Positions 6,099 through 32,000 of a DNA stretch of 32,000 bases are shown here, in pieces. Numbering within the stretch: position 1 is the first letter of the stretch; each line of letters opens with the position of its first letter. The DNA is from Candidatus Brocadia sp. (GTDB lineage: Bacteria > Planctomycetota > Brocadiia > Brocadiales > Brocadiaceae): contig CP091279.1 in assembly GCA_021650915.1 (NCBI GenBank), positions 3,240,001-3,272,000 on the forward strand. The letters run 5' to 3'. The notes beneath the pieces were generated by a model. The model saw only the letters and a program-made list of their open reading frames with translations, had not been told where the DNA came from and did no database searches. A program made the translations under genes and the position numbers.

Positions 6099-6122
6099 TT
6101 TAAAAGGATAAGATATTATGGG

Positions 6123-10172: not shown

Positions 10173-10176
10173 AATT

Positions 10177-10204: not shown

Positions 10205-10235
10205 CCTTGAGGTGAACATCCGCTTCAAGGCACGC

Positions 10236-10298: not shown

Positions 10299-10300
10299 TA

Positions 10301-10874: not shown

Positions 10875-11701
10875 TATAATATACTATATTATTCAACATT
10901 TCAAGCACATTATTGAATAATAACAATATATTAGTGACTACATAATTGCCGACAAAACCATACTAACTACCAATATATTAAATACTTACGTGTTTTGCTT
11001 GGGGTGAACATCCGTTGAAGTATGGGATACCTAAGTGGTTGAAAATATCACCTCTGCGAGCCTAAATCCTCGTAGAGAAGTTTGTACCTATGCGTATACA
11101 AAGGAACAATCCGTATGCGTAGAAGGATCGCGTATTCCCGTGAGGGGTATGACGGAGTTACGAGGTACAGACGACCTTTTGGGGTGTATGAATATGGCGT
11201 GTTAGTTCGTGCCAACTGCCCTTTCTCAGTGAAGCACTGACAATGTCCCTGTTGGAGATGTCAAAAAAAAAAAGACCAGGTGAAAACATCTCTGGATAAT
11301 GCGTTTGAACATACATCACGAAGGGAAAAGGGGTAATCCATATGACCGGGGGAGGACTTACGTCTTGGGAAGAAATTCCCTAACAGCGAGGTATAAGGGA
11401 AATCCGAAATCCAAGCTGTATGAGATGGTGACAGACGACTGGCTCTCACAGGTCTGTCTTTGAAGTCGTCAGCAGTGCTCATAATAGTTTCTGGTGTAAG
11501 CCGGAAATGAAGGGGCATAACCGTAGTGGAGTTGATGAAACGTGGTAGATTGAATACGTTCCATGAGAAAAGAGACTCTTTGCATGGGCAAGTAGTAGCA
11601 AGAGCCTCTCTTGTTTTGCCTCTGTCAGGAGGAATCTCGACTCAGGAAACACGATTGACAAGTCTATTATCCGGAATCAATCAAAAGGAACATATCGGGA
11701 G

Positions 11702-12849: not shown

Positions 12850-12887
12850 CCCGACTTTCGCAATTCGAGGGGTATACAACCCGCTAA

Positions 12888-13982: not shown

Positions 13983-14044
13983 CCCGACTTTCGCAATTCG
14001 AGGGGTATACAACCCGCTAAGCCAGGAAAATCAAGGGGTCATGT

Positions 14045-14070
14045 AAAAAGGTCGGCACTACAGGCCGACC
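14045..14070 (-). terminator. Hairpin plus T-run at the transposase stop (putative terminator inside the IS end)
   Basis: The minus strand reads ggtcggc-ctgtagt-gccgacc followed by ttttt. The stop codon sits in the loop. The same structure recurs in every copy. Confidence 0.5.
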
Positions 14071-15890: not shown

Positions 15891-16017
15891 TACAAGCCGT
15901 TTTTAAAATTCACCCCTTGAATATCACGGGTTTCCTGGCGACTCTTGCCCAAAAATAAACGTTTTTGGGCGCGAATTGCGAAAGTCGGGCTAAGCCAGGA
16001 AAATCAAGGGGTCATGT

Positions 16018-16043
16018 AAAAAGGTCGGCACTACAGGCCGACC
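16018..16043 (-). terminator. Hairpin plus T-run at the transposase stop (as at 14045-14070)
   Basis: The sequence aaaaaggtcggcactacaggccgacc is the same as in the other copy. Confidence 0.5.
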
Positions 16044-17863
16044 TGCCCGGATACGTAAACCTTGGGCGGCGGTTGTTCAGGAAGCGTTAATCCCAACTGC
16101 GCCAAAAGGAGTAAAACGTCCTTCTCCGGCTGGGTATAACGGCTCATGACAATATGACGGCCATCCGTGGTCGGTAAATGAACGTCTATCATTTGAATGC
16201 CCGACAGTTTTTCCAAAATCGCTTCAGACGTCAGCCCTCCGGCCCTCCCCCGCGCAAGATTGCGCAGTGTCGTGTGGAGACAAAAAGCCAAAAAGGAAAC
16301 AAAGATATGGGCTTCAATTCTCCGTTCCAATTGATGCCATAGGGGGCGGACGGAAAGAGACCCCTTCAAGTCCTTAAATGCCTGTTCTATCCGTGTCAAC
16401 AGCAAATAATTTTCCCAGACGGTTTCTGGCGCGGTGGCCTGCATGTTGGAACGAAGCAAATAACGCCCCTCGCGCCGATACGCCTGCCTCAGGCGTTCCC
16501 GATCCAAACTGAACCGGAACGTATTCTCATTGACCGGTTCCTGCGGTTTGGGAATGGAGATCGTGACCAGTCTGTAGTCTCGTCCGGCTTCTTTCTTTAA
16601 CGCGCCAATATGCATGAGCAGGTCATCGCGCGTGAGGGCTTTTCGATTGCGAAGTTCGCGCAGGCCCATCCACAAACGTCTGAGTCTGCGCCTACGCATG
16701 GCACGCTCCTTAGACACCCGGTCATGGCTTTCCACGTAAACGTAAAACTCCGATTCCTGCCGAAGAACTTTCACGCGGACACTCTCCCTCGCCTGCATCC
16801 AGGTTTGTTCGAGCAACGGTTTTTCTACTCGCGTCAAATGTCCCTTCGGAGTCCCAACCAAATAATCAATCCCGCGCTCACGCATCTTTTCCAACATCTC
16901 CTCCGTTGGAATACCGCGATCCATAAGCCAGGTGCGCCGGAATTTCCCATACTGCTTTTCAATCCGATCCAGAAATTCCTCCAGCGTTGCGGTGTCTCTG
17001 GTATTGCCCGGATACACTTCGTAGGCAACGGGAAATCCTTCCGGCGTTAACACCAATGCCACTACCACCTGCACGCAATCCGAACGTTTGTCCCGGCTAT
17101 ATCCAAACCGTTTCTTACTCCCCGATCCAGTCGGAGGTGGGTCACTTTCAAAATACGTACTCGTCAAATCATACAGCAGTACATCGTACTTCGCCCCAAA
17201 GAGCTTGCCCCACTTCTCCTTTAAATAGGCAAACAGCTCGTCCCGATGCTCAAGCAACAAATCCAAACAACGATACGCCTTGTCCTTCTGCGCCAGGGAA
17301 TAATCCTCTCCCAGCAGATCGCCTGTTGCGCTCCGCACGTACCACTCACGGTGAAAACGAAATTCGCTTCCCGGATCGATCAACCGGTAACAGACAAGCG
17401 CCTTCAGTATATTCAACCAGCTTGTCCCCTTCCGGCTTGACGGCAGACGCATCCTCCAGAATGTGTCCAGTTCCAGCATATTCCATACATACAATCCCAA
17501 CCAGCTTGCTCCCCACTCCCGTGGATGGCGCAGCTCTATTTTGTCCAACCTCACCCGAACTGTCTCACCATCCGGTATCGGCATGGCTTCCCGGTCATCC
17601 GGAAACAATGCCAGTTGTCTTGGTTTCGGTTCTTTACCCGACACCGCCTCTATCGTCCGAATCCACCCAGCCCGTTGATTGTCATTGAGTTCTCCCAAAT
17701 AGAGAACCTGCCGTTGCACCACCCTTCTTCCGCTGACCCGGCGGTTCTCTACCACGCTCCAATAACGGTGGGTTTTCCCATCTTTCGTTCGTGTCTTTTC
17801 CCGGAGAAACATGCGAGCATTTTCGCACTTCCTCCTGCATGCGTCAAGAGGGTAGGTCGGCAC
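16031..17863 (-). CDS. IS1634-like DDE transposase, 610 aa (second intact copy)
   Basis: It differs from 14058-15890 at only a few residues (for example RRVSG vs RRVTG, PPTGSGSKK vs PPAVSGSKK). Confidence 0.85.
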   Translation of the reverse strand: MPTYPLDACRRKCENARMFLREKTRTKDGKTHRYWSVVENRRVSGRRVVQRQVLYLGELNDNQRAGWIRTIEAVSGKEPKPRQLALFPDDREAMPIPDGETVRVRLDKIELRHPREWGASWLGLYVWNMLELDTFWRMRLPSSRKGTSWLNILKALVCYRLIDPGSEFRFHREWYVRSATGDLLGEDYSLAQKDKAYRCLDLLLEHRDELFAYLKEKWGKLFGAKYDVLLYDLTSTYFESDPPPTGSGSKKRFGYSRDKRSDCVQVVVALVLTPEGFPVAYEVYPGNTRDTATLEEFLDRIEKQYGKFRRTWLMDRGIPTEEMLEKMRERGIDYLVGTPKGHLTRVEKPLLEQTWMQARESVRVKVLRQESEFYVYVESHDRVSKERAMRRRRLRRLWMGLRELRNRKALTRDDLLMHIGALKKEAGRDYRLVTISIPKPQEPVNENTFRFSLDRERLRQAYRREGRYLLRSNMQATAPETVWENYLLLTRIEQAFKDLKGSLSVRPLWHQLERRIEAHIFVSFLAFCLHTTLRNLARGRAGGLTSEAILEKLSGIQMIDVHLPTTDGRHIVMSRYTQPEKDVLLLLAQLGLTLPEQPPPKVYVSGQVGL

Positions 17864-18431
17864 TACAAGCCGTTTTGAAAATTCACCCCTTGAATATCAC
17901 GGGTTTCCTGGCGACTCTTGCCCAAAAATAAACTTTTTTGGGCGCGAATTGCGAAAGTCGGGTTAAGGCACGTGCAAAGGCATGATAGTTTACTTTTCTC
18001 TGCTCCAGAGCAACACTATGGGGTCGCTAACTACGGGAAAGCCGTATGGTTTAAAAGGATGCTTTGGTACGTTGTTCAAAGTATCTGGCGACGATTGGGG
18101 GTTGGAGGCGATTCGCCTCCTTCCTACCAGCTAATTGGTTGCGGCTGTGCTGCGCTATGAATATCCAAAATCTTTTGGTTTTTGACAAGCTAACAAAACT
18201 ACCCATGTCCGCGCTTCCTAGGTTAAAGAAGGAGGTTTTCCTTTTCTTGGCAAATCTTGTAGGGCAGCTATCACTCCGAGCTGAAGCACTTTGTCAATAC
18301 ACCGTTCAATCTTCGGCCGATTTGTCTGAAGTTGTCGGGCTATCTCCGATAGCCGATGATCCTTCTGTATACAAAAGGATCATTTTCACACGCTCAACCG
18401 TTTGCAACTCTTTTATTCGTGAACGACTTAG

Positions 18432-20892: not shown

Positions 20893-21003
20893 TATACTCA
20901 GGGTGTTCACAAAATGTGATTTTTGAAACACTTTAACCATTTATATAAACAGAAGTTATGTAGAACTTCAGAAATCATTGTTTGTGAACCCTTAGAGTAT
21001 ACA
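20893..21003. repeat. Imperfect ~26-nt inverted repeats bracketing ~60 bp of AT-rich sequence, next to the IS66 end
   Basis: tatactcagggtgttcacaaaatg (20893-20916) pairs with cattgtttgtgaacccttagagtata (20976-21001). Confidence 0.5.
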
Positions 21004-21335
21004 TTTGTTTATAATGTAACGCTGTTGATGACATAAAAATACTTTTTATGAAGATTTTTAGCAAAAAGTTATTGTGGCAAAACGTTTAATTTAGTATAAC
21101 GTTTCAGAAGAAATATATGACACTGTTGATTAACTATTACTTCAACAATGTGCTATGCTATATGCAGTATAATGTAGTCAAGATAATGCCGTATATGATA
21201 TACGGGTTTGGTCTGAAGGGCATTAATCAACTGAGCCAGATATATAAATGCACACAGTCTTTAATTTATGCTATTTACAGGTAAAAGCCTGCCATTGCCA
21301 TACGTCTTAATTATCGATTTTTTATGAAACTTATA

Positions 21336-21444
21336 CTAGTGTAGAGACATATTAATAACGAAACATATAAATGCTGTTTTGCAGCACTATATAACTATAA
21401 TTGTCCACAATATATAATTTGTAATTAATATGTCTGCACACTAG
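21336..21444. mobile_element. 109-bp MITE derived from IS630-type element 2
   Basis: The termini ctagtgtagagacatattaataacgaaaca... and ...attaatatgtctgcacactag match the ends of 22151-23303. There is no coding capacity. Confidence 0.75.
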
Positions 21445-21568
21445 TGCTTACTTGCAATAATCTGTGATATTATATAAGGCTCTGGAATAAGCGAAAATAT
21501 TGGCTTTTCAGCGCAAATTTATTATAAAGAATTTATGCAATTAGACACTCGATATTAACAGGTGAAAT

Positions 21569-22147
21569 ATGGACATTGGTGATTCTTCAAATAGGGGTCT
21601 TTTACGTATTGATCTCCAGACATCCTTAAAGCGTAGCCCTCTTAATCCAAAAGATATTACTCCTTTTCAGCGAATTCTTCTTACGACAGATGGTATGGTG
21701 ACTGAGATGCTAGAAGCCTATCTTTGGGAACGGATGAAGGTTATAAAATTGTTCCAAGGTTATTTTGTTGCGGATAATGAAAATCCCTTTTTGGAGATTG
21801 CAAAAGGGTGTAGGGTAATGCAAAGAAAGGTTCTCTTATGTGGGAGATTAAGTCAGAAAAATCATCTGTATGCTGATTCTATAATAATTCCAGACCGACT
21901 TGATGAAAGGATCAAAGACAGCTTATTAAATACTAACAAGCCTATTGGATTATTAATTTTGGAAAATCGTTTAGAAACTTTTCGTGAGATTTTGGATTGT
22001 GGCAAAGAAGAGGCGGAAGACCTCGCTGATTATTTTAACATCCGAAGGAGTGAATTTTTGATCTTTAGGACATATAGAGTTTTTTCAAATCGTTTGCCTA
22101 TAATGTTAATAACTGAAAAGTTTCCAGAGAGTGGAATGAGAATATAA
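21569..22147 (+). CDS. DUF98 / chorismate pyruvate-lyase-like protein (192 aa)
   Basis: An SD (aggtga) precedes the ATG. The motif FQRILLTTDGMVTEMLEAY and the later ...KPIGLLILE...RTYRVF...PIMLITEKFP resemble the DUF98/UbiC-fold family. The function is inferred. Confidence 0.6.
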   Translation: MDIGDSSNRGLLRIDLQTSLKRSPLNPKDITPFQRILLTTDGMVTEMLEAYLWERMKVIKLFQGYFVADNENPFLEIAKGCRVMQRKVLLCGRLSQKNHLYADSIIIPDRLDERIKDSLLNTNKPIGLLILENRLETFREILDCGKEEAEDLADYFNIRRSEFLIFRTYRVFSNRLPIMLITEKFPESGMRI

Positions 22148-22150
22148 TTA

Positions 22151-23303
22151 CTAGTGTAGAGACATATTAATAACGAAACACATAATATGATGTATGAGAC
22201 AAACCGAAATACATCTAACCGAAGAGGATAAGGCGGCACTGAAGGTTTTTCGTTCGAAGGGGAAGCACATGGCAAGGGAAATCAACCGGACGCACATTTT
22301 ATTAGCATTAGATGAAAAAATGCCTGAATTGCTCATCATGCAGGTTCTGGCGTGGGTCGCACCACCATTTGGCGTACGCGCTCGGCTTATGTAGAAAAGG
22401 GATTGGACTATGCTTTGCACGATGTGGCACGTCCTGGGCAACCACGGCAGTACGGAATCGATCAGCAAGCCGAGATTGTAGCTTTGGCTTGTAGTGCGCC
22501 TCCGAAGGGAGCTAAGCGTTGGACGATCTGATTGCTTACCAAGGCTGCGCGTCGGCGTCCCAAGCTGAAAAACATCAGCCGTGAAAGTATTCGCCGGTTT
22601 CTAAAAAAACGACTGCAAGCCTTGGCGCAAGGTGGTGTGGTGTATTGGCAAAATCACCACGGAGTATCGACAAAGGATGTATGAACTGTTGGAACTCTAT
22701 GCACGGCCATATCGGAAAGAGGAGCCCGTGATCTGCGTGGACGAGAAAAACAAACAGCTTTTACAACAGACCCGGGCACCGATTGTGGCCAGACCTGGTG
22801 CGCCAACGAAGGGGGATTACGAATACCGGCGTGCTGGCACGCGCAACATCTTCTTGGCGGTGGAGCCAAAGGGTGGACACCGCCAAGCGGAGGTGACAGC
22901 CCGTCGCACCAAGCCTGATTTTGTTCGGTTCATAGGCCGATTGGTAGAAAAGGTCTATGCCGGAGCAGAGAAGATTCATCTGGTGATGGACAATCTGAAT
23001 ACTCATTTCCGCAGGAGTTTTGAAGAAGTTTTGGGTGTCAAGCGTGCGGAACGGATGCTGGCAAGGGTAGAGTTTCACTACACGCCAAAACACGCCAGTT
23101 GGCTGAATATGGCAGAAATTGAAATAGGAGTTATGGATAGACAGTAGACTGCCCAACGAAGTGATACTTAGGTCCGAAGTGGCCGCCTGGCAGCATCGCC
23201 GTAATCAAGCTAAGACCAAGATCGAATGGAAGTTTACCCGACAAGATGCCGACGATAAACTATCCAGGCATTATGTCTTTTAATTAATATGTCTCTACAC
23301 TAG
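22151..23303 (+). mobile_element. IS630-family element 2 (1153 bp), inserted 3 nt after the stop of the preceding gene
   Basis: The inverted termini are ctagtgtagagacatattaat (22151-) and attaatatgtctctacactag (-23303). The target context is CTAG/TA. Confidence 0.8.
22194..23283 (+). pseudogene. IS630-family transposase, decayed (at least three frame changes and an internal stop)
   Basis: The fragments read MRQTEIHLTEEDKAALKVF..., GVGRTTIWRTRSAYVEKGLDYALHDVARPGQPRQY...ALACSAPPKGAKRWTI*, KPWRK..WCIGKITTEYRQRMYELLELY...VCVDEKNKQ...HLVMDNLNTH...TPKHASWLNMAEIE, and ...EVAAWQHRRNQAKTKIEWKFT. Confidence 0.8.
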
Positions 23304-23329
23304 CACAGAAATATTATGGAGGTATAATT

Positions 23330-23599
23330 ATGAGCGGTGAGGTGGTCAGTATTGATAATAGAGTGAAAAAAGTAATAATTGAAAGACTAAAGCCAAATAT
23401 TAATGTAGCGGAAATATCGAAAAATACTCCTCTTATTGGTAAGGGACTAGGGCTTGATTCTGTTGGTGTTCTTGAATTAGTAGTTGGTTTGGAACAAGAA
23501 TTTAGTATTATGTTTGATGACTCTGAGATGAATATTGAACTCTTCGAGAATATAGGAAGTTTAACTAACTACATTGATAAGAAATTAAATTATAAGTAA
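23330..23599 (+). CDS. Acyl/peptidyl carrier protein (89 aa)
   Basis: An SD (ggaggt) lies upstream. The phosphopantetheine-attachment motif is GLGLDSVGVLELVVGLEQEF. Confidence 0.85.
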   Translation: MSGEVVSIDNRVKKVIIERLKPNINVAEISKNTPLIGKGLGLDSVGVLELVVGLEQEFSIMFDDSEMNIELFENIGSLTNYIDKKLNYK

Positions 23600-23698
23600 G
23601 CGCGAAATAACAGGATTCAATATTCTGTTAGCGTTAGTAGCGATTGAAAATAAATATTTCCCTGAAACTAAATGCATTCCATGATTTAAAACTAAAGA

Positions 23699-24958
23699 AT
23701 GAACCGTAGAATTTTCCTTAAAAGAATTACCGCATACATAACTGGATTCTTTTTCTTCAAAAAATTATCATGGAGGATGGCGACAGTTCATGCGGAAAAA
23801 ACAAGGCCAAAGGTTCTTAGGGTTTATCACGCTCATGCAACTAATTGGGATTTTCAAAATAGCGTGACCTCAGAAAGTCGTTATTGGGAACGTGTTAACA
23901 TCGATGCTTGTCGTAAGATGATAGCTGAAGGCTTAAAGACATTTACCAAGAATCCAACCCTTGATGAGGCATGGAATTGGATCTTGTATCAAAATGGAGG
24001 AAAAGGCTACGTTAAGGGTCAAAAGATTTCTATAAAACTTAATTGGAACGATTGTGATCCAGGTCTTGGAGATGGGCCTAATGGTAACTATCTTGTTTCC
24101 AATACTCAGTTGGTGCAGGCAGTTGTTGAAAGTCTGCTTGTTCACGTCCCTGGTTTAAGGCCTGAAAATTTATTGGTTGGAGATCCCTCCCGTATTCCTT
24201 ATGATAGGATACGCTCTGCTCTGGCTGGTTTAGGTGTACAGGTAATAGAGTTCAAACCTGACATCTTCATTGCCTCTCCAGATGGTCGATTAAATTATCC
24301 CAACTGGCAGGATGATTATGTGTGTGATGCGATGTTCGGCCAATCTACCCATCTGATCGAGATGCCACTTCTTAAGGCAATCACACCGTCATGGGGAGTC
24401 GCTGGTGTACTTAAGGATGCTCAGGGCAAGGTAGGACTGGCAAAAGCATCATATCATGATAACAGAAAGGCATGGAAAAAAAAGCATCGCGAGACATTCT
24501 CCCATACGGATAGATTAAATACCCTGGTTCACATGAATTCTCACCCATGGATTAAGGGCAAACGTCGCCTGATTATTGCAGATGGCCTGTATGGTCTCTT
24601 TAATGGTCAGCATTTTCCTTCCGGGCCAAAAGATGATATTCCCCGCCCTTGGATGCTTTTTAATAATGCTTTTCCTAATAGCATCTTGTTTTCAACCGAC
24701 CCCGTGGCTATTGACTGTGTCATGCATGATTTGGTTCGTTTCGAGCGAATGTGTCAGGGGTTATCCGGTTCATTTCTAAAACCAGTGAAGTTTCAGAAAC
24801 CTATCCAATTGGCGTGTGCTGTCGCTGGATTAGGTACAAACGACGAACCCGCGGAATCTAAAGTCACTCCGTCCCCAATTGGACCAGTGATTAGTTATGC
24901 CAATATTGATTATGAAGTAGCGGATGTTACATTCCGGAAGCCAGGTTTAGAGGAGTAA
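23699..24958 (+). CDS. DUF362-like protein with a twin-arginine (Tat) type signal peptide (419 aa)
   Basis: The N-terminus MNRRIFLKRITAYITGFFFF...VHA fits the S/T-R-R-x-F-L-K pattern. The body (VLRVYHAHA...DEAWNWIL...GQKISIKLNWN...TQLVQAVVESL...ENLLVGDPSR...DPVAIDCVMHDL) resembles DUF362. Confidence 0.6.
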   Translation: MNRRIFLKRITAYITGFFFFKKLSWRMATVHAEKTRPKVLRVYHAHATNWDFQNSVTSESRYWERVNIDACRKMIAEGLKTFTKNPTLDEAWNWILYQNGGKGYVKGQKISIKLNWNDCDPGLGDGPNGNYLVSNTQLVQAVVESLLVHVPGLRPENLLVGDPSRIPYDRIRSALAGLGVQVIEFKPDIFIASPDGRLNYPNWQDDYVCDAMFGQSTHLIEMPLLKAITPSWGVAGVLKDAQGKVGLAKASYHDNRKAWKKKHRETFSHTDRLNTLVHMNSHPWIKGKRRLIIADGLYGLFNGQHFPSGPKDDIPRPWMLFNNAFPNSILFSTDPVAIDCVMHDLVRFERMCQGLSGSFLKPVKFQKPIQLACAVAGLGTNDEPAESKVTPSPIGPVISYANIDYEVADVTFRKPGLEE

Positions 24959-24973
24959 ACTATAGGTATTGAA

Positions 24974-26476
24974 ATGGATAACAAATTGCTTCCTTTCTGG
25001 CTTTCTGTGAATGTGGATAGGAATCCTTACGCAATTGCTATTGTTGATGGTAATAAGAGGATTACTTATTCCGAAATGAATGATTCCGTAAGCAGATTAG
25101 CCGGTTGGTTAATTTCGCGTGGAGTTCAACAAGGCGACCGGGTAGTTTTACTGTTACCGAACTCTTCAGAATTTGTAATAAGTTTTTTTGCAATTGCTAG
25201 GATAGGTGCTGTAGCAGTTCCGCTCAATGTTCAGTATAAAGAGCAAGAGCTGGCCGCTTATCTGAAGGACTCTAACCCGAAAGTAGTGATTGCATTAGGC
25301 CATTTAATCCCGTTAATTAAAGGGATTATTCTTCTCATAAATAACAAGGCGTGTGATATTGTCAGCGTTCACAATGAGAGAAACGAATCATTTTCTTACA
25401 CGCAGGTAGTTCGAGAAAATTCTCCCTTCAGTGGAACAGTAAATGTACTGTCAGAAAATGATCTCCTTTGTCAGTATTCTTCAGGTTCTACAGGAATACC
25501 CAAAAGGATTATGCGTACTCACTTGAATCTCGTATCTGAGGCGAGTAATTTTAACTCCACGGTTAAGCTAGCGAATAGTGACAAAATCCTCTGCGTAGTG
25601 CCTTTGTTTCACGCACATGGACTTGGAAATTGCATGTTAGCGTCGGTTTATGCCGGGGCAACTCTTGTTATTTTAGAGGGTTTCAATCGACAGGGCGTCT
25701 TGAAAACAATTCAAGATGAGCGGATTACCGTTTTTCCAGGAGTACCCTTTATTTTCAGTATTTTGGCCGACATGCCTTTGAGAGAGGTTATGGCATTTCC
25801 TTTCTTAAGGCTCTGCTTTTCCGCTGGCGCAGCTTTACCACGTGAGACATTTCAAAAGTTCTTAGAGAAATATGGCGTCCCAATTAGGCAACTGTATGGT
25901 TCCACAGAAACCGGTTCGGTATCGATAAATTTGAATAAGGACGTTTCTGAGACGGCAGACTCCGTTGGTTTGCCTATGAAAAATGTTGAGGTAGAGATCT
26001 TTGGAGAAAAAGGGGAGATTCTACAGCCTAACGAAATAGGTAATATAGGCATTAAAAGTTCAGCCATGATGAAGGGTTATTCGGGGTTGGAAAATCTCAA
26101 CAAAGAGTCATTCCGTGATGGATACTTTTTCCCCTTGGATCTGGGGAAAAAGGATGAGGGAGGCAATATCTATCTTAGGGGTCGGAAGACGTCGTTTATT
26201 AACACCGGTGGTAATAAGGTGGATCCATCCGAGATTGAAATACTCCTAGGTAAGCATTCGAAGGTTAAGGAGGTTGTCGTAGTGGGGGTAAAGAGCTATT
26301 ACGGTGAGGATGTAATAAAGGCCGTTGTTGTTCCTAACGATCGGTGTGATGAAAGAGAGATTGTAGAATTTTGTAAGGGGAAAATCGCGGATTTTAAGAT
26401 ACCAAGGATTGTTGAATTCCGGAAAGAAATTCCCAAGAATCCTTTAGGTAAGGTATTGAAAAAATATTTACACTGA
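24974..26476 (+). CDS. AMP-forming adenylating enzyme (ANL superfamily; acyl/aryl-CoA or -ACP ligase), 500 aa
   Basis: Core motifs are YSSGSTGIPKRI, LYGSTETG, GRKTSFINTGGNKVDPSEIE and PKNPLGKVLK. Confidence 0.9.
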   Translation: MDNKLLPFWLSVNVDRNPYAIAIVDGNKRITYSEMNDSVSRLAGWLISRGVQQGDRVVLLLPNSSEFVISFFAIARIGAVAVPLNVQYKEQELAAYLKDSNPKVVIALGHLIPLIKGIILLINNKACDIVSVHNERNESFSYTQVVRENSPFSGTVNVLSENDLLCQYSSGSTGIPKRIMRTHLNLVSEASNFNSTVKLANSDKILCVVPLFHAHGLGNCMLASVYAGATLVILEGFNRQGVLKTIQDERITVFPGVPFIFSILADMPLREVMAFPFLRLCFSAGAALPRETFQKFLEKYGVPIRQLYGSTETGSVSINLNKDVSETADSVGLPMKNVEVEIFGEKGEILQPNEIGNIGIKSSAMMKGYSGLENLNKESFRDGYFFPLDLGKKDEGGNIYLRGRKTSFINTGGNKVDPSEIEILLGKHSKVKEVVVVGVKSYYGEDVIKAVVVPNDRCDEREIVEFCKGKIADFKIPRIVEFRKEIPKNPLGKVLKKYLH

Positions 26477-26598
26477 AAAATATGGATTACAAGATAAAAA
26501 CAATACCGCGATAGAAACTGGACGAAACACGCTACACAAGAAAACTGAATGCTTATCCGGCAATATAGTTGATTCAAAAACGATCAAAGGAGTTTGAT

Positions 26599-27630
26599 AT
26601 GTCCGATTTAGAAACGAAAAAACAGGGTGGCCTTGGCTACCTCTTAGACTTGGCATCTTCTTACTATAAATCCAAGGTGCTTTTTGTTTCAACTGACCTC
26701 GGTATTTTTTCTGTCCTGTTACGTGCAAGGAAGGATGTGCAAACCATAGCTCGAGAAATTAAACTTGAGCGAAGACCGGTAGAAATGCTTTTGAATGCCT
26801 GTGTATCTCTAGGCCTACTTGAGAAAAAGGAAGGGCTTTACTCTAATTCTTCCACTGCAGAGATGTTCCTCGTAAAAGGTAAGCCTATGTATGTTGGTGA
26901 GGCTTTTCAGGTGCTGGATCGGAGAAGCTATAAGTTATGGGATAGGCTCAAAGAAGCTGTTAAAACAAATACGCCACAGGCCTATTTGGAAGGAAAAGGG
27001 GATCTTTTTGAAGAAATGACTAAAAACAAAGAGGAAATGCATGCCTTTTTTCGCGGCCTCCACGCCTTAGCCTACTGGCCAGCCAGTTCTCTGGCACGGA
27101 TATTTGATTTTACGCCATATCGCCATCTTTTAGATGTGGGTGGTGGCTCAGGGGCTTATTCCATTGCTCTTGTAAAAAGACATGCGCATTTAAATGCAAC
27201 GATTCTCGATCTTCCGCCGGTGTGTAAGATTGCGCAGGAGAACATTGCAAAAGAGAACCTTTCTCATAGAATCTCAACCCTTCCAGGAGATTTCTTTAAA
27301 GGCGATTTTCCGAAGGGTGTGGACATTATCCTCTTCTCCAATCTTCTTCATGACTGGGAGGAGAAGAAGATTGAGCACCTATTAAAAAAGACGTTTGAAG
27401 TTTTACCTTCAAAGGGCGGGGTAATCATCAGTGACATGGTCTTGAGTAACGATGGTACAGAACCACTTTACGCGGCTTTGATGTCTCTAACTTTGCTCTT
27501 AGATACACACGGAGGTTCGAACTACACGGAGGAGCAATACACTCGTTGGTTGGATGGAGCTGGTTTTCGAGAAATCAGTGTAAAACCTCTCTCTGGTCCA
27601 AACGGGATAGTGACTGGCACCAAACCTTAA
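26599..27630 (+). CDS. SAM-dependent O-methyltransferase (Methyltransf_2-like with N-terminal dimerisation domain)
   Basis: ATG at 26599 lies 8 nt after aaaggag (the ORF track starts earlier, at 26569). SAM motif I is LLDVGGGSGAYSIAL, and ILFSNLLHDW lies downstream. Confidence 0.85.
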   Translation: MSDLETKKQGGLGYLLDLASSYYKSKVLFVSTDLGIFSVLLRARKDVQTIAREIKLERRPVEMLLNACVSLGLLEKKEGLYSNSSTAEMFLVKGKPMYVGEAFQVLDRRSYKLWDRLKEAVKTNTPQAYLEGKGDLFEEMTKNKEEMHAFFRGLHALAYWPASSLARIFDFTPYRHLLDVGGGSGAYSIALVKRHAHLNATILDLPPVCKIAQENIAKENLSHRISTLPGDFFKGDFPKGVDIILFSNLLHDWEEKKIEHLLKKTFEVLPSKGGVIISDMVLSNDGTEPLYAALMSLTLLLDTHGGSNYTEEQYTRWLDGAGFREISVKPLSGPNGIVTGTKP

Positions 27631-27717
27631 TTTTTTTATTTCCGAGCGGAATACTGACTCATTGACAACTTAACGAAAGAGGCACGACAGAAAGACAAGA
27701 ATGGGGGTAAATGAAAA

Positions 27718-29076
27718 ATGAAGGTATTAATAGTGCAGCCTGCTACAAACCCGAAGGTTTTGGGTGGTGACCTTATCTTCAAGACCGAACCTTTGTGGGG
27801 GGAGTATCTTGCCGCAGCGGTTCAGGAAAATCACGATGTTGAGATTCTTGATCTAAGGATGGGAGGTAATTTCCACGAGACCTTGGAAAGGTTCCAACCA
27901 AATGTTATTGCGATGACTGCCTTTACTGTGGATGTTAACAGCGTTAAAAAGCTATCAAAGGAAGCAAAAGGCCTGAACCCCAAGATATTAACAGTTGTTG
28001 GAGGATACCATGCATCTTTGGCTCCTCATGACTTCGACGATCAAAATATTGATGTTATTGTCATAGGGGAGGGTATATTTACTTTTAAGGATGTGGTAGA
28101 GTCTCTTGAAAAAGGCAGCAATTTTAGATCCATTCCAGGGATTGTCTTTCGCTCAGAAAATACCTTGATAAAAAATGAGCCAAGACCCTGGCCCCATCTC
28201 GACTCATACAACTTTCCCAACAGGACCCTAACAGCCCTGCACAGGAAAGAATATTTCGATAAATGGATGAAGCCGCTCGCTACTATCAGAGGCTCTTACA
28301 GTTGTCCTTTCAGATGTGACTTCTGCTGTCTCTGGCCTATGACTAACAGCAAATATCTAACCAGAACTCCGGAGTCTTTTGTGGCAGAGCTGAAAACAAT
28401 ACAAGAGGAAAACATCTTTTTTTCTGATGACGAGGCCCTTATTGATATTGAGAGAATGAGAAAGATTGCCGATCTTATTAAAAGAGAAGGTATAAAGAAA
28501 CAGTACTTTTTTATGACGCGTTCAACTTCCATCAGAAAAAAACCTGATATCATAGAGAAATGGGCTGAGATAGGGCTGAAGAGGGTTCTTTTAGGGTTAG
28601 AGTCCCCTCGTGAAAGAGATCTGGTTGATTTCAAAAAGGATGCTACGATAGATGACAATAATCAGGCAATTTCTATTCTTAAGCGGAATAATATCGAGAT
28701 CAACTCCATGTTTGTTATTGCTCAGGATTACGAAAGAAAAGACTTTGAAAATCTCGATGGATACGTAAAATCACAGGGACTGGAGATGCCCATTTTTTGT
28801 ATCCTTACTCCTTTTCCTGGGACACCCCTGTATGAAAAGATGAAGAAACAAATCATCGTGGAAGACTACGACCTCTGGGATCTTTTACACACCGTGCTTC
28901 CAACGACTAAACTCTCTTTAAAGGAATTTTACCTGGAGTTTGCAAAGTTGTATGGAGGTTTGGAACCTCTTTACCGGGGAATTTTAAGTCATCGCAAGTC
29001 CGTCTCTGCGGAAGACACCGTCGAAAACATACGGAGAGTATTCAGAGCTATGAGAAAAAAGGAGGGTGCAATATGA
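27718..29076 (+). CDS. Cobalamin-binding-domain radical SAM enzyme (class B), 452 aa
   Basis: The N-terminal Rossmann-like B12-binding region reads KVLIVQP...NVIAMTAF...VVGGYHAS. The CxxxCxxC box is SCPFRCDFCC. There is no SPASM-type C-terminal Cys cluster. Confidence 0.9.
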   Translation: MKVLIVQPATNPKVLGGDLIFKTEPLWGEYLAAAVQENHDVEILDLRMGGNFHETLERFQPNVIAMTAFTVDVNSVKKLSKEAKGLNPKILTVVGGYHASLAPHDFDDQNIDVIVIGEGIFTFKDVVESLEKGSNFRSIPGIVFRSENTLIKNEPRPWPHLDSYNFPNRTLTALHRKEYFDKWMKPLATIRGSYSCPFRCDFCCLWPMTNSKYLTRTPESFVAELKTIQEENIFFSDDEALIDIERMRKIADLIKREGIKKQYFFMTRSTSIRKKPDIIEKWAEIGLKRVLLGLESPRERDLVDFKKDATIDDNNQAISILKRNNIEINSMFVIAQDYERKDFENLDGYVKSQGLEMPIFCILTPFPGTPLYEKMKKQIIVEDYDLWDLLHTVLPTTKLSLKEFYLEFAKLYGGLEPLYRGILSHRKSVSAEDTVENIRRVFRAMRKKEGAI

Positions 29077-30473
29077 AGGTTCTTTTAATTGCGGTCAATC
29101 AGGAAAAACATCCCTACCCTGTGCAACCCATTGGTGCTATTTATATTGCAGCAGCTTTAAAGGAAAAAGGTCACCAGGTCCGATTTTTGGACCTGAATTT
29201 TGTGGATGATTATAAAAGAGAGATACCTCTTACCCTGAACGAATTTAAACCGGATATTGTTGGTATTTCCATGAGAAATATCGATAACTGTTTCTATCCC
29301 AATATGGAGTTCTATCTCCCAAAAATAAAAGAGTTTGTCGATTGTTGTAAAGCAAATACCACTGCCAGATTGATAGTAGGTGGCTCCGGGTTCTCTGTAA
29401 TGCCGAAAGAGATTTTGGAGTATTTAGAGTTGGACTTGGGAATAACAGGAAATGGCGAAGAGGTAATTTGCAATTTGGTCGCCAAGATAGAGGATGGCGC
29501 AGACATTGAAAAGATCGAAGGTATTATTTATAGGAAGAACGGGCACTATTTTAAAAATCCTGTCACCTATACTTCCTATGGGCTTGATGGATTAGAGCCT
29601 GCCCGATTTCTTCTTGCATTAAAGACATATTTTGAAGAGGGAAGTGTTGCGCCTATTCAATCCAAGAGAGGTTGTGAGTTTGACTGTATTTATTGCACCT
29701 ATCCCTTAATTGAAGGAGAAAAGGTCAGGTTGCGCAATCCGAAAATGGTTGTGGATGAGATTGAGAAATTGAAACGGGATTTTGGAATCGACTACGTATT
29801 CTTCATCGACAATGTCTTTAACTATCCCATTAACCATGCTGTTTCCATTTGCAAAGAAATTATAGACCGTAAGATCAAGATAGGGTGGACAGGATTTTTT
29901 AATCCGGCATTTATGACAAAAGAATTGGTTTCCCTGCTTAAGGAATCAGGTTGCTCCGGAGTAGAGTTTGGAACTGAGGCTGCATGTGATAAGATGCTTA
30001 AGAATTTAGGGAAAAGCTTTAATGTAAATACCCTGATTAAATCTCACAAACTATGTGCAGAAGTAGGCGTTAAGACATGCCATTATCTACTATTGGGAGG
30101 GCCCGGAGAAACCATAGAGACGATAGAGGAAAGCCTTGCTTTAATGAGAGAACTGAAGCCCACAGCCGTAATTGTCGCTACTGGAATACGCATTTACCCG
30201 GGAACGCCATTAGAAAAGATAGCAATTGAAGAAGGGTATGATCTGACAAATCTCTTGATACCCCATTTTTACATTTCCAAAGAATTGGGAGATAATGTTG
30301 AAGAAACTATTCAGAATTTTGCAAAAAAATACCCTGAGTTTATCTTTGAAGGTGTTCACAAGAAGACGTCTAAGGAGATACTACGGATGATGAGGCGTAT
30401 GGGGTTTAAGGGACCTTCATGGGAATTTGCTCCTGTAGTTAATAGGCTTTTTAAACGCCGGGAATCAGATTGA
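29073..30473 (+). CDS. Cobalamin-binding-domain radical SAM enzyme (class B), 466 aa
   Basis: It overlaps the upstream gene by ATGA. The B12-binding-like N-terminus reads KVLLIAVN...DIVGISMRN...IVGGSGFS. The CxxxCxxC box is GCEFDCIYCTY. Confidence 0.9.
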   Translation: MKVLLIAVNQEKHPYPVQPIGAIYIAAALKEKGHQVRFLDLNFVDDYKREIPLTLNEFKPDIVGISMRNIDNCFYPNMEFYLPKIKEFVDCCKANTTARLIVGGSGFSVMPKEILEYLELDLGITGNGEEVICNLVAKIEDGADIEKIEGIIYRKNGHYFKNPVTYTSYGLDGLEPARFLLALKTYFEEGSVAPIQSKRGCEFDCIYCTYPLIEGEKVRLRNPKMVVDEIEKLKRDFGIDYVFFIDNVFNYPINHAVSICKEIIDRKIKIGWTGFFNPAFMTKELVSLLKESGCSGVEFGTEAACDKMLKNLGKSFNVNTLIKSHKLCAEVGVKTCHYLLLGGPGETIETIEESLALMRELKPTAVIVATGIRIYPGTPLEKIAIEEGYDLTNLLIPHFYISKELGDNVEETIQNFAKKYPEFIFEGVHKKTSKEILRMMRRMGFKGPSWEFAPVVNRLFKRRESD

Positions 30474-30479
30474 TAAAAA

Positions 30480-30612
30480 GTAAGTGCTCGGTGTAAGTTT
30501 AATCACTACCGAGAAGAGCGAACAAAATCAGGCAATTCGTCGCATAATATCCGCCTCGAATGCGTTCCTTATTTTTGACAGATCGAGAGATAGCAGTAAA
30601 ACATGACAAAAA
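30480..30612 (-). pseudogene. 3'-terminal remnant of a second, diverged IS66-type element
   Basis: The minus strand reads YLSICQK*GTHSRRILCDELPDFVRSSR*, colinear with YLSTCRKQGVNLSQALQRVFRGKLPDFARS* at 20776-20866. An IS66-style terminus gtaagtgctcgg starts at 30480, 6 nt after the rSAM stop. Confidence 0.6.
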
Positions 30613-30616
30613 ATTG

Positions 30617-30682
30617 GTAGAGTAGAAAAAGAGAGACTTAGTTAAAGAAAAAGCCCTCCAAATATGGTAAAAAATAGTTTTG
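30617..30682 (+). repeat. 66-bp terminal fragment of the ISKra4/ISLre2-like IS (reverse complement of 8870-8935)
   Basis: gtagagtagaaaaagagagact.agttaaagaaaaagccctccaaatatggtaaaaaatagttttg matches the end of the 7550-8935 element with one mismatch. Confidence 0.75.
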
Positions 30683-30839
30683 GGTCTTCAGGCAAGCGAG
30701 TGGGTAATTTTGAGCAGTTTTATATCTCCTTTAGCATACAAGTAAGAATTTTTAGCCGGAGATATTCCTCATCTCTCAAGCCGTATGCCCTCCTCTGTAT
30801 CACCCGAATCTTGTTATCAAGACCTTCGGCAAAGCCTAA
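30683..30839 (-). pseudogene. ISL3-family element end with the last 41 codons of its transposase
   Basis: The minus strand reads LGFAEGLDNKIRVIQRRAYGLRDEEYLRLKILTCMLKEI* (CDS part 30714-30839). The IS terminus ggtcttcaggc is at 30683. The element is cut at 30839 by the IS1634-like copy. Confidence 0.7.
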
Positions 30840-32000
30840 CCCGACTTTCGCAATTCGAGGGGTATACAACCCGCTAAGCCAGGAAAATCAAGGGGTCATG
30901 TAAAAAGGTCGGCACTACAGGCCGACCTGCCCGGATACGTAAACCTTGGGCGGCGGTTGTTCAGGAAGCGTTAATCCCAACTGCGCCAAAAGGAGTAAAA
31001 CGTCCTTCTCCGGCTGGGTATAACGGCTCATGACAATATGACGGCCATCCGTGGTCGGTAAATGAACGTCTATCATTTGAATGCCCGACAGTTTTTCCAA
31101 AATCGCTTCAGACGTCAGCCCTCCGGCTCTCCCCGCGCAAGATTGCGCAGTGTCGTGTGGAGACAAAAAGCCAAAAAGGAAACAAAGATATGGGCTTCAA
31201 TTCTCCGTTCCAATTGATGCCATAGGGGGCGGACGGAAAGAGACCCCTTCAAGTCCTTAAATGCCTGTTCTATCCGCGTCAACAGCAAATAATTTTCCCA
31301 GACGGTTTCTGGCGCGGCGGCCTGCATGTTGGAACGAAGCAAATAACGCCCCTCGCGCCGATACGCCTGCCTCAGGCGTTCCCGATCCAAACTGAACCGG
31401 AACGTATTCTCATTGACCGGTTCCTGCGGTTTGGGAATGGAGATCGTGACCAGTCTGTAGTCTCGTCCGGCTTCTTTCTTTAACGCGCCAATATGCATGA
31501 GCAGGTCATCGCGCGTGAGGGCTTTTCGATTGCGAAGTTCGCGCAGGCCCATCCACAAACGTCTGAGTCTGCGCCTACGCATGGCACGCTCCTTAGACAC
31601 CCGGTCATGGCTTTCCACGTAAACGTAAAACTCCGATTCCTGCCGAAGAACTTTCACGCGGACACTCTCCCTCGCCTGCATCCAGGTTTGTTCGAGCAAC
31701 GGTTTTTCTACTCGCGTCAAATGTCCCTTCGGAGTCCCAACCAAATAATCAATCCCGCGCTCACGCATCTTTTCCAACATCTCCTCCGTTGGAATACCGC
31801 GATCCATAAGCCAGGTGCGCCGGAATTTCCCATACTGCTTTTCAATCCGATCCAGAAATTCCTCCAGCGTTGCGGTGTCTCTGGTATTGCCCGGATACAC
31901 TTCGTAGGCCACGGGAAATCCTTCCGGCGTTAACACCAATGCCACTACCACCTGCACGCAATCCGAACGTTTGTCCCGGCTATATCCAAACCGTTTCTTA
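30840..32000 (-). mobile_element. IS1634-like element, fourth copy (runs off the window)
   Basis: It has the same terminus cccgactttcgcaattcgaggggtatacaacccgctaagcc, preceded by CTAA (30836-39). Confidence 0.85.
30915..32000 (-). pseudogene. IS1634-like transposase, frameshifted copy (partial in window)
   Basis: It reads cagccctccggctctccccgcgc at about 31117-31139, where the other copies read ...ggccctcccccgcgc (one nt shorter). This splits the ORF into 30915-31166 and 31115-31957+. Confidence 0.8.

Follow-up and report, generated by a model that had tools for sequence, protein, structure and literature searches.

A conserved, uncharacterised carrier-protein operon with two cobalamin radical SAM enzymes in the anammox bacterium Candidatus Brocadia fulgida

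In the anammox bacterium Candidatus Brocadia fulgida, seven same-strand genes of a 32,000-nucleotide stretch (the window) form a real and conserved operon that is still uncharacterised. An ORF check of the window found all seven genes full length and intact where they had been predicted (Table 1), and the encoded proteins exactly match B. fulgida proteins. The genes of the two radical SAM enzymes (rSAM1 and rSAM2) overlap by an ATGA at 29073-29076, and the remaining intergenic gaps are short, as had been noted (99, 15, about 122 and 87 nt). A synteny search in other genomes showed that the seven-gene set is co-conserved and colinear in at least four related lineages (loci L001, L005, L006 and L008), at 64-91% amino-acid identity, in agreement with the original prediction of a single operon. 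No description of this gene set was found in the literature searched, and the statement that no characterised pathway holds these genes still stands there. We tentatively read the operon, at somewhat less than even confidence, as a carrier-protein-dependent cassette for tailoring a small acid, in which a chorismate-derived aromatic acid would be methylated and handed to an envelope glycan.

Table 1. Features of the operon and its borders in the window
Feature	Position	Strand	Evidence or remark
MITE-like element, 109 bp	21336..21444	.	AT-rich region upstream of operon; read from sequence
DUF98/Rv2949c-like protein, 192 aa, putative chorismate-utilising lyase	21569..22147	+	PF01947 58.8 bits, cut-off 22
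Decayed IS630-family IS	about 22151..23303	+	In DUF98-ACP spacer
Free-standing ACP, 89 aa	23330..23599	+	PP-binding 31.4 bits; LDS serine motif
Tat-signal DUF362 protein, 419 aa	23699..24958	+	PF04015 26.3 bits, cut-off 24
ANL-superfamily adenylating enzyme, 500 aa, presumed acid:ACP ligase	24974..26476	+	AMP-binding 285.6 bits, AMP-binding_C
Junction missing two alpha/beta-hydrolase genes	26477..26598	.	About 1.8 kb in relatives
Methyltransf_2-family SAM methyltransferase, 343 aa	26599..27630	+	PF00891 132.8 bits, Dimerisation 57.9 bits
Cobalamin-binding radical SAM enzyme 1 (rSAM1), 452 aa	27718..29076	+	B12-binding 66.7, Radical_SAM 57.2 bits
Cobalamin-binding radical SAM enzyme 2 (rSAM2), 466 aa	29073..30473	+	TIGR04072 413.9 bits, cut-off 360
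IS4-type element copy, right-hand bound of operon	30836..32000	-	DDE_Tnp_1 match

What remains of the window outside the operon is the 3' end of recQ together with mobile elements; as predicted, no ketosynthase (KS), condensation domain, thioesterase or PPTase was found in it, nor were polysaccharide genes or a transferase. The operon is a roughly 10-kb single-copy island amid copies of insertion sequences (IS) and group II introns, and further copies of the IS4-type element on its right lie at 12882-17967 (97-99.6% identity in a self-blast). The decayed IS said to part gene 1 from the rest is an IS630-type element with perfect 21-nt inverted repeats (CTAGTGTAGAGACATATTAAT), whose transposase is a DDE_3 fragment (89.5 bits) with its frame broken into pieces. 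The MITE-like element has the same terminal inverted repeats, and blastn of the IS against the window matched an IS end to it at 21336-21377. The IS630 element is a secondary insertion. It is absent from the orthologous loci, where the DUF98 and ACP genes are adjacent, and its removal would leave about 27 nt between the DUF98 stop and the ACP start. The junction recurs at 99.5% identity in an independent metagenome contig (L022).

The operon is nevertheless not complete. In all intact relatives, the adenylase and methyltransferase genes are separated by a pair of alpha/beta-hydrolase genes, both of them deleted in the window, where homology to L001, L005 and L006 ends at the adenylase stop and restarts at about 26541-26583. 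The relatives' hydrolases find their best matches, well above other families, in the 'exosortase A system-associated hydrolase 2' (TIGR03101, 131 bits) and 'hydrolase 1' (TIGR03100, 100 bits) families. The arrangement lacking them is common to several B. fulgida-like assemblies, as judged by accession order. Since the hydrolase loss and the IS junction are found in other assemblies or in the metagenome contig, this state is not a fresh lesion. The operon could still be a stranded, incomplete remnant that no longer yields its original end product, as the two missing genes, the IS between genes 1 and 2, the lack of polysaccharide genes in the window and the island setting would suggest. We consider this rather unlikely, because all seven ORFs are full length and the shared arrangement shows no further decay. 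Purifying selection on all seven genes is strong (dN/dS 0.03-0.14 against three relatives) and the values for the window copy do not exceed those between intact relatives, although pairwise dS is near saturation, which makes pairwise dN/dS blind to recently relaxed selection.

Gene 1 had been predicted to encode a DUF98 chorismate lyase making 4-hydroxybenzoate. The fold is well supported: besides its Pfam score, the protein matches PDB 2nwi (E 7.5e-12), and its AF2 model matches 2nwi with a TM of 0.81 and UbiC (1fw9) with an E of 5.6e-4. Residues R86 and E183 do not vary across 33 homologues; an alignment to UbiC pairs them with R76 and E155, but at an hhalign probability of 2.4% and with a hand-entered UbiC sequence. 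On NF037993, a validated cyanobacterial chorismate-lyase model with a cut-off of 175 bits, the window protein scores 30 bits and members of its clade 29-46 bits, and half of these members stand alone, in cyanobacterium-like contexts. The protein belongs to an uncharacterised clade, so that its product can only be presumed to be 4-hydroxybenzoate.

The ACP lies under every NCBIfam ACP equivalog cut-off (best AmcB, 48 vs 80 bits) and is 69-81% identical to its orthologues. The predicted ANL adenylase is recovered by both of its domains. It too falls under all NCBIfam cut-offs, with the long-chain-fatty-acid-CoA ligase PRK06187 scoring best (371 bits). FadD13 is its best PDB match, and 4CL, oxalate-CoA ligase and an NRPS A-domain follow within about 20 bits. 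The protein lies equally far from all four; neither an aryl nor a fatty-acyl substrate class can be assigned from these comparisons. Adenylases next to DUF98 genes in unrelated genomes share 40-48% identity with it, and no other partner of the ACP and adenylase is as tightly co-conserved across phyla as DUF98.

The methyltransferase carries an LHDW catalytic-His motif. Its most likely start is the ATG at 26599 and not the TTG at 26569 given originally, because AAGGAG sits 6 nt upstream of this ATG, the orthologues are all 343 aa long and a 353-aa form is absent from the protein collection. Its best PDB match is RedM (8tji, 2e-56), followed by DsyB, ASMT and SibL. Membership of the Methyltransf_2 family is upheld, while the 'O-' of the predicted O-methyltransferase is a Pfam family name only; N-, S- and C-methyltransferases are among the solved structures nearest to the enzyme.

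Both radical SAM proteins have the expected B12-binding and Radical_SAM domains, with CxxxCxxC motifs. By its scores, rSAM1 is HpnR/BchE-like and outside every curated family (HpnR 236.8 vs 650 bits; BchE 159.5 vs 481), and its top representative in a library of 1.84 billion proteins is 53% identical. For rSAM2, TIGR04072 is followed by BzaD (251.9 bits), the TsrM family scores 168.9 bits, and the best PDB match is TsrM (6wte, 1.9e-39). TsrM and BzaD, its closest characterised relatives, methylate aromatic rings or carbons. A homologue of rSAM2 (54%) on an Acidobacteriota contig adjoins an A-PCP protein and a pair of DeoC-type aldolase and DHQS-II genes, which we take to be of the kind making 3-amino-4-hydroxybenzoate.

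The Tat-signal DUF362 call is borne out by an N-terminal NRRIFLK twin-arginine motif, and 47 of the 52 aligned homologues have an RRxFLK-type motif. The AF2 model (pLDDT 83) gave only weak fold matches, to LarA-like 9q3k and 4nar; DUF362 shares Pfam clan CL0471 with LarA (PMC11770544). It is not obvious what a periplasmic DUF362 protein would do in ACP chemistry, which counts against the tethered aromatic acid.

In contrast to the island in the window, the operon of the relatives is embedded in surface-polysaccharide loci, whose flanks encode Wzx, Wzy_C, sulfotransferases and glycosyltransferases. The L008 operon contains a GT-C-like protein with 9 TM segments, GtrA and a HAD-UbiA fusion that passes the decaprenyl-phosphate phosphoribosyltransferase model (292 vs 234 bits), and it is flanked by a FemAB-like protein, a polysaccharide deacetylase and exosortase EpsH/EpsI. 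DUF98, ACP and adenylase occur together in 14 of 29 well-flanked metagenome loci, in an EPS locus of Thiogranum longum with an LpxL-like acyltransferase, and in a Scalinduaceae XrtA-type locus with both hydrolases, adjoined by a dedicated class II DAHP synthase (TIGR01358, 641 vs 615 bits). A proteobacterium-like MAG (L103) encodes an ACP, an adenylase, DUF98 (71%), rSAM1 (56%), rSAM2 (47%), a methyltransferase and an LpxL-like acyltransferase; LpxL-like or PlsC genes also accompany the module in L020, L030 and L024.

Several known systems resemble parts of this operon. The mycobacterial p-hydroxybenzoate arm (Rv2949c, FadD22, Pks15/1) serves phenolic glycolipid, a methylated, glycan-bearing envelope molecule, and likewise pairs a PF01947-family lyase with a carrier-loading adenylating enzyme. 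However, FadD22 joins adenylase and carrier in one fused protein and feeds a polyketide synthase, whereas the Brocadia ACP is free-standing without a KS, two cobalamin radical SAM enzymes are added and the DUF98 protein is of another clade. For aryl polyene, flexirubin and xanthomonadin starters (ApeH/ApeE-type), a stand-alone ANL enzyme charges a free ACP with hydroxybenzoate, the ring receives a methyl group, and the product becomes anchored in the envelope through an LpxL/PlsC-type acyltransferase, which recalls the acyltransferase genes beside the module. The Brocadia operon lacks the KS/CLF, KR and DH genes and the class I SAM methyltransferases of those clusters, which in turn are not known to include B12 radical SAM enzymes. 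The XrtA/PEP-CTERM cassette (acyl-CoA ligase TIGR03098, ACP, TIGR03100, TIGR03101 and decarboxylase TIGR03099), itself without known chemistry, is matched in the relatives by adjacent genes for an ANL ligase, an ACP and two dissimilar alpha/beta hydrolases in an EPS locus, which abuts an exosortase in L008. Nevertheless, all scores on its models are below cut-off (131 vs 203, 100 vs 168, 236 vs 592 bits), a DUF98 protein takes the place of the decarboxylase, and the window has no hydrolases. In the anaerobic dimethylbenzimidazole pathway, a Methyltransf_2-type O-methyltransferase and two cobalamin radical SAM enzymes (BzaC, BzaD and BzaE) act in turn on a phenolic ring. By contrast, rSAM2 does not reach the BzaD cut-off (450 bits), rSAM1 is not BzaE-like (38 bits to BzaD), and these enzymes and TsrM work on benzimidazoles, free or ribosylated, or on tryptophan instead of carrier-bound acids.

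Lipid tailoring offers another, unlikely, account, in which the adenylase would be a fatty-acyl-ACP synthetase, the radical SAM enzymes and methyltransferase would methylate an aliphatic chain or lipid head group, and DUF98 would have a non-lyase role such as ligand binding. It is favoured by the PRK06187 and FadD13 matches, by the likeness of rSAM1 to the hopanoid C-3 methylase HpnR and by the passing score of rSAM2 on TIGR04072, a 'lipid biosynthesis B12-binding/radical SAM protein' family (that of antiSMASH-style 'ladderane' clusters) without demonstrated reaction. A core member of this family (in L102) also pairs with a second, overlapping B12 radical SAM gene, only 24% identical to its Brocadia counterpart, and has KS and KR partners that the Brocadia operon lacks. 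In L004, an 83% homologue of rSAM2 sits in an ACP-ACPS-FabA-FabA-KS-reductase-PlsC cluster, and in L024 the DUF98-ACP-adenylase module abuts the same type of cluster. These points, with the low scores of the DUF98 clade, weigh against an aromatic substrate. Yet the adenylase matches are all below cut-off, with other enzymes scoring close to FadD13, DUF98 is the tightest partner of the module and keeps its Arg and Glu, a DAHP synthase adjoins the Scalinduaceae module, arenes are the substrates of the characterised rSAM2 relatives, and the L004/L024 cluster would also suit a lipid primed with an aryl group, as in aryl polyenes.

A role in ladderane biosynthesis, the alternative first offered, would make the ACP, the methyltransferase and the B12 radical SAM enzymes responsible for forming or rearranging the cyclobutane lipid; the host makes ladderanes, the TIGR04072 model is nicknamed rSAM_ladder_B12, and ACP-bound intermediates, SAM methyltransferases and radical SAM enzymes all figure in published proposals (PMC2649909, PMC10139942, PMC9821293). 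This is highly improbable, because the operon is confined to a few Brocadia-like lineages, rSAM2 homologues of at least 77% identity form only ten 90%-identity clusters (the named ones Brocadia sp. and one Proteobacteria-labelled MAG), only two close loci were found among 185,579 species-representative genomes, a variant occurs in the proteobacterium-like MAG, the module lies in polysaccharide loci, the proposed B. fulgida ladderane Cluster I (Broful02170-02173) is a different locus, and TIGR04072-type clusters are common in non-anammox phyla (PMC9902471). Of the earlier interpretation, the operon, the DUF98 fold and the secondary IS are thus retained, and the ladderane alternative is given up.

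We return to the tailoring of a chorismate-derived acid, of which we infer the substrate, step order, product and acceptor. The DUF98 protein would form an acid from chorismate, with 4-hydroxybenzoate as precedent, and the adenylase would activate this acid and charge the dedicated ACP with it. Methylation of the ACP-tethered group would then fall to the Methyltransf_2 enzyme and both radical SAM enzymes, rSAM2 on a ring carbon, like TsrM and BzaD, and rSAM1 at a further, possibly sp3, position. The earlier model of a methylated aromatic acid gains indirect support from the DAHP synthase beside the Scalinduaceae module and from TsrM and BzaD as nearest rSAM2 relatives, 4-hydroxybenzoate itself still being inferred. 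In intact relatives, the hydrolase pair of the exosortase-A-associated type may act as the acyltransferase that moves the finished group to an acceptor in the cell envelope. The likeliest acceptor is a sulfated polysaccharide of the surface or the lipid-linked precursor of one. Other genomes have an LpxL-like, E2-like or GNAT-like enzyme in place of the hydrolase pair. For the DUF362 protein, Tat export would imply a site of action beyond the cytoplasm. The lack of a transferase and of glycan genes in the window counts against glycan transfer there. Because the B. fulgida copy is without hydrolases, split by an IS and separated from glycan genes, it would either rely on a transferase encoded elsewhere or yield only an ACP-bound or released acid.

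The seven same-strand open reading frames of the original prediction, with their domain content, were recovered by ORF calls and profile searches. They encode, in order, a DUF98 protein, an acyl carrier protein (ACP) of 89 aa, a DUF362 protein, an adenylase, a Methyltransf_2 enzyme and two cobalamin-binding radical SAM enzymes, rSAM1 and rSAM2, encoded by genes that share an ATGA overlap. Six of the seven proteins are residue-for-residue matches to proteins of Candidatus Brocadia fulgida or Brocadia sp. (KKO18914-18918, KKO20893, UJS20087-20094), which public records annotate at family level only. The methyltransferase lacks an exact database match only because the mechanical ORF begins at TTG 26569; read from ATG 26599, which has AAGGAG ahead of it, it comprises 343 aa, the length found in all orthologues. 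Orthologous genes in identical order are present in four distinct contigs from relatives (L001/L013, which comes from a Brocadia MAG, L005, L006 and L008), with amino-acid identities of 64-91%, in agreement with the earlier view that they constitute one operon. Since the DUF98 gene lies directly ahead of the ACP gene in these four relatives, the IS630-type insertion that separates them in the window is secondary; an independent metagenome contig shares its junction at 99.5% identity. When 20900-31000 was scanned for promoter and terminator consensus sequences, 21 promoter and 10 terminator sites were found (23.9 and 8.1 expected), a result uninformative on co-transcription.

Coordinates of features in the window and in related loci
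Sequence	Feature	Position	Strand	Remarks
Window	recQ, 3' end	14-1312		
Window	Group II intron, RT/maturase ORF	3651-5481	-	Copies 98.5% identical, inverted orientation
Window	Group II intron, RT/maturase ORF	11015-12849	+	
Window	IS4-type element, partial copy	12882-13983		
Window	IS4-type element, full copy	14016-15994		~2 kb, 610-aa DDE_Tnp_1 transposase; tandem with next copy
Window	IS4-type element, full copy	15989-17967		
Window	MITE-like element	21336-21444		109 bp
Window	Seven-gene operon	21569-30473	+	
Window	IS630-type element	~22151-23303		1.15 kb, between DUF98 and ACP genes; perfect 21-nt inverted repeats, broken DDE_3 frame
Window	IS4-type element, further copy	30836-32000		Right boundary of operon, runs off window; IS4-type copies 97-99.6% identical
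L008	Three extra genes	4762-8565		Between methyltransferase and rSAM1 genes
L004/L012	rSAM2 homologue (83%) and duplicated gene pair	6825-12446		Contig end
L009	rSAM2 homologue (54%) locus	422-13835		
L010	rSAM2 homologue (54%) locus	457-11362		Acidobacteriota
L034	ACP-DUF98-adenylase locus	4962-13144		
L060, L072, L074, L080, L085	Stand-alone DUF98-clade gene	~10001-10555		~50% identity

The operon genes in the window are all present, as predicted, but the set is incomplete: the four relatives hold two extra genes between those of the adenylase and the methyltransferase. Homology between the window and its relatives ends at the adenylase stop codon and restarts just ahead of the methyltransferase gene. 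The extra proteins are two unlike alpha/beta hydrolases (hydrolases 2 and 1) whose clear best matches are the families named for hydrolases associated with the exosortase A system, TIGR03101 (hydrolase 2; 131 bits, below the cut-off of 203) and TIGR03100 (hydrolase 1; 100 bits, below 168). No such pair adjoins the operon in the window, and judging by accession order the hydrolase-less arrangement is common to several B. fulgida-like assemblies. In every relative the operon is located within surface-polysaccharide genes. It is flanked in L001, L005 and L006 by a Wzx flippase, Wzy_C, glycosyltransferases and several sulfotransferases, and accompanied in L008 by the exosortase proteins EpsH/EpsI, a FemAB-like protein and a polysaccharide deacetylase. 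The three extra genes of L008 encode a 615-aa GT-C-like protein predicted to span the membrane 9 times, GtrA and a HAD-UbiA fusion; the fusion scores above the cut-off of the decaprenyl-phosphate phosphoribosyltransferase model (292 bits vs 234). Together the three form a predicted polyprenyl-phosphate-pentose donor route inside the operon. In the window we found neither remnants of the relatives' flanking glycan genes nor an exosortase/EPS locus context.

The remainder of the window consists of the 3' end of recQ, its sole other housekeeping gene, two group II introns, and IS110, IS630, IS66, ISAzo13 and IS4-type elements, mobile DNA amounting to about two thirds of the window. The operon is a ~10-kb single-copy island with insertion sequences on either side. 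GC content is 32% upstream of the operon (21001-22000), about 38-44% across it and 52-53% in the IS4-type copies (13001-18000), and from this contrast the IS elements appear compositionally foreign to host DNA. A MITE-like element whose 21-nt terminal inverted repeats are identical to those of the IS630-type element lies within the 32%-GC stretch immediately upstream of the DUF98 gene. With the hydrolases and the glycan genes missing, the operon could be a stranded, incomplete remnant in this genome. We judge this unlikely: pairwise dN/dS is 0.03-0.14 for every operon gene, and on the window's branch it is no higher than between two intact relatives. Such a remnant would concern present-day function and is compatible with an ancestral role in the modification of an aromatic acid, the reading that we prefer.

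The placement of the first gene product in the DUF98/chorismate-lyase fold was upheld (PF01947, 58.8 bits vs a gathering threshold of 22; PDB 2nwi, E 7.5e-12). Its AF2 model matches 2nwi at a TM-score of 0.81, as well as UTRA domains and UbiC (1fw9, E 5.6e-4). The protein does not reach the chorismate pyruvate-lyase equivalog NF037993 (30.1 bits vs a cut-off of 175), which describes the validated cyanobacterial chorismate lyase; members of the clade, cyanobacterial ones included, score 29-46 bits. Because the clade lies far below this cut-off, we can only infer chorismate-lyase activity. Residues R86 and E183 are invariant in 33 homologues. They were paired by hhalign with the catalytic R76 and E155 of UbiC, at a probability of 2.4% and with a provisional UbiC sequence, and a PDB sequence-profile search with the DUF98 alignment retrieved 2nwi only and no UbiC. 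The equivalence of these residues is at most suggestive.

The DUF98 clade is tightly conserved, 47-86% identical across Planctomycetota, Proteobacteria and Cyanobacteria, and its genes recur in a DUF98-ACP-adenylase module. In an EPS locus of Thiogranum longum that includes sulfotransferases, the DUF98 gene sits between those of the ACP and the adenylase, with an LpxL-like acyltransferase adjoining. A Scalinduaceae MAG shows the order class II DAHP synthase, hydrolase 2, hydrolase 1, DUF98, ACP, adenylase, methyltransferase and Wzy-like ligase, flanked by XrtA-type amidotransferases; the DAHP synthase exceeds the TIGR01358 cut-off and provides the best contextual support for a shikimate-pathway substrate. 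A proteobacterium-like MAG (L103) carries a variant operon with ACP, adenylase (40%), rSAM1 (56%), rSAM2 (47%) and DUF98 (71%), adjoined on the opposite strand by a class I methyltransferase and an LpxL-like acyltransferase. In a further locus, L024, the genes for an E2-like acyltransferase, DUF98, ACP and adenylase stand directly beside a FabA-FabA-KS-reductase-PlsC-phosphodiesterase cluster, the one that holds the 83% rSAM2 homologue in a Lac Pavin MAG (L004). The 29 metagenome DUF98 loci for which at least 2.2 kb of sequence is available on either side include 14 in which an adenylase gene on the same strand lies no more than 2.5 kb away, and an ACP was detectable in 12. The rest are solitary genes in cyanobacterium-like surroundings. 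Five such stand-alone genes, with petA, Mur ligase and SLH neighbours, encode proteins that score 33-34 bits on NF037993 and are distinct from the validated cyanobacterial lyase which that model describes. The ACP-DUF98-adenylase genes of L034 are flanked by those of an APH-type kinase, a nucleotidyltransferase, a GCS2-like ligase, an AstE/AspA-like deacylase and a GNAT-like protein, which points to an acylated sugar or amine, and not a polysaccharide, as the product. The logic of the module would be that an acid is made, loaded on a private ACP and transferred by whichever acyltransferase accompanies it. The Brocadia form is this module with the addition of the DUF362 protein, the Methyltransf_2 enzyme and the two radical SAM enzymes.

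The adenylase falls below every curated cut-off and is equidistant from FadD13, oxalate-CoA ligase, an NRPS A-domain and 4-coumarate ligases. Its fatty acyl-CoA ligase, oxalate-CoA, A-domain and 4CL matches lie within ~20 bits of one another, and neither the single sequence nor a 13-sequence profile of the module allowed a substrate class to be assigned from the nearest solved or curated relatives. The exosortase A-associated ligase family TIGR03098 ranks about 16th among its matches (236.1 bits vs 592.35). The methyltransferase bears an LHDW motif, and its closest solved relatives act on nitrogen (RedM), sulfur (DsyB), oxygen (ASMT) and carbon (SibL). AmxMT1 of the anammox FASII clusters (PDB 8HD2) was considered as kin and rejected, being a class I enzyme and not among its relatives. 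The DUF362 protein is predicted to be exported by the Tat pathway: its N-terminus (MNRRIFLK...VHA) combines the twin-arginine leader NRRIFLK with an h-region and an AxA-like site, and the RRxF/L motif occurs in 47 of 52 homologues. A fold search with its AF2 model (pLDDT 83) returned only weak LarA-like matches (TM ~0.3), consistent with the common Pfam clan of DUF362 and LarA (PMC11770544).

Both radical SAM enzymes match PF02310 (B12-binding) and PF04055 (radical SAM), placing them in class B, and the two translations contain the CxxxCxxC motifs CPFRCDFC and CEFDCIYC. rSAM1 resembles HpnR and BchE, far under the cut-offs of both; for the hopanoid C-3 methylase HpnR (TIGR04367) the score is 236.8 bits vs 650. 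Its nearest representative in a library of 1.84 billion proteins is 53% identical. rSAM2 matches TIGR04072, the family named for B12-binding/radical SAM proteins of lipid biosynthesis, over residues 2-451 of 466 (413.9 bits vs a cut-off of 360). Next come BzaD (251.9 bits, short of the 450 of the equivalog TIGR04385) and the tryptophan 2-C-methyltransferase family (169 bits); among its solved relatives TsrM matches best (1.9e-39). BzaD, the tryptophan 2-C-methyltransferase family and TsrM methylate aromatic carbons. We rejected the idea that the rSAM1-rSAM2 pair is the core TIGR04072 pairing, the partner in the core locus L102 being only 24% identical.

The neighbourhoods of rSAM2 homologues bear on the substrate. 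An aliphatic or lipid substrate would fit the KS/KR/ACP-type lipid-cluster context seen in L004 and L102. No KS, KR or DH of that context was detected in the window, L001, L005, L006 or L008; the ketosynthase, condensation domain, thioesterase and PPTase reported as missing from the window are indeed absent. We regard a lipid substrate as improbable. In L010, a 54% rSAM2 homologue is preceded by genes for DHQS-II (PF01959) and a DeoC-type aldolase, which we take to be of the kind that makes 3-amino-4-hydroxybenzoate, by an A-PCP protein and by a 1852-aa NRPS in which a B12-binding/radical SAM domain is embedded between the adenylation halves. In L009, a 54% homologue is found with an ACP, a Methyltransf_2 enzyme (OMT), an adenylase, GT2, a PIG-L deacetylase, a BtrH_N-type transferase, another radical SAM enzyme and three DUF362-ferredoxin fusion proteins. 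This is the sole other place where DUF362 occurs alongside rSAM2, ACP and OMT. In the Lac Pavin MAG (L004/L012), which is labelled Proteobacteria and has Brocadia-like proteins, an acyltransferase-phosphodiesterase gene pair occurs twice, on either side of the 83% homologue and a 214-aa protein; tandem duplication or faulty assembly could account for the repeat. The ladderane locus raised in the original prediction is very improbable, given that close homologues are few, patchy and confined to a few Brocadia-like lineages, that a variant of the operon lies outside anammox bacteria (L103), that the proposed Cluster I of B. fulgida is a different locus (Broful02170-02173), that neither the window nor the orthologous loci hold FabZ, FabF or phytoene-desaturase-like partners, and that TIGR04072-type clusters are widespread in non-anammox phyla (PMC9902471).

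Our preferred reading, which we hold tentatively, is that an aromatic acid derived from chorismate would be loaded on the ACP and methylated there by the methyltransferase and the two cobalamin enzymes. In the intact versions the hydrolase pair would then transfer the methylated group to an envelope glycan, a step that would be missing in cis from the B. fulgida copy. We know of no demonstration that cobalamin radical SAM enzymes of the TsrM/BzaD-like class act on an ACP-tethered aromatic ring. Every part of the operon belongs to a known family, and its front end has precedents in Rv2949c/FadD22 and in aryl-polyene starter modules. It is the joining of this front end, within glycan loci, to two class B radical SAM enzymes, a DUF362 protein and exosortase-type hydrolases that is uncharacterised. 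Full-text searches of one literature library found no paper on this gene set, and nothing on DUF98 or on exosortase, ACP, acyl-CoA ligase and hydrolase in combination; the papers retrieved that pair PEP-CTERM with ACP concern unrelated N-acyl amino acid synthases.

The anammox granule matrix is important to wastewater engineering and, to our knowledge, genetic manipulation of anammox bacteria is impossible. The operon offers a small enzyme set open to in vitro study, in which two cobalamin radical SAM enzymes gain a tractable carrier-bound candidate substrate. An anammox locus flagged by TIGR04072 or by a 'ladderane' cluster call may have nothing to do with ladderanes. The conserved cassette may acylate surface polysaccharide, which makes methylated hydroxy- or methoxybenzoates set free from EPS a chemical target, and it may open a way into the ligase/ACP/hydrolase cassette of exosortase EPS loci, itself uncharacterised. 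More speculatively, and in our estimate with only a small chance of being right, the operon might make a new polymethylated aroyl group on its carrier. If so, this group would decorate the sulfated extracellular polysaccharide that binds anammox granules, and the acylation cassette of exosortase-type EPS loci, long without an explanation, would be the DUF98-ACP-adenylase-hydrolase module.
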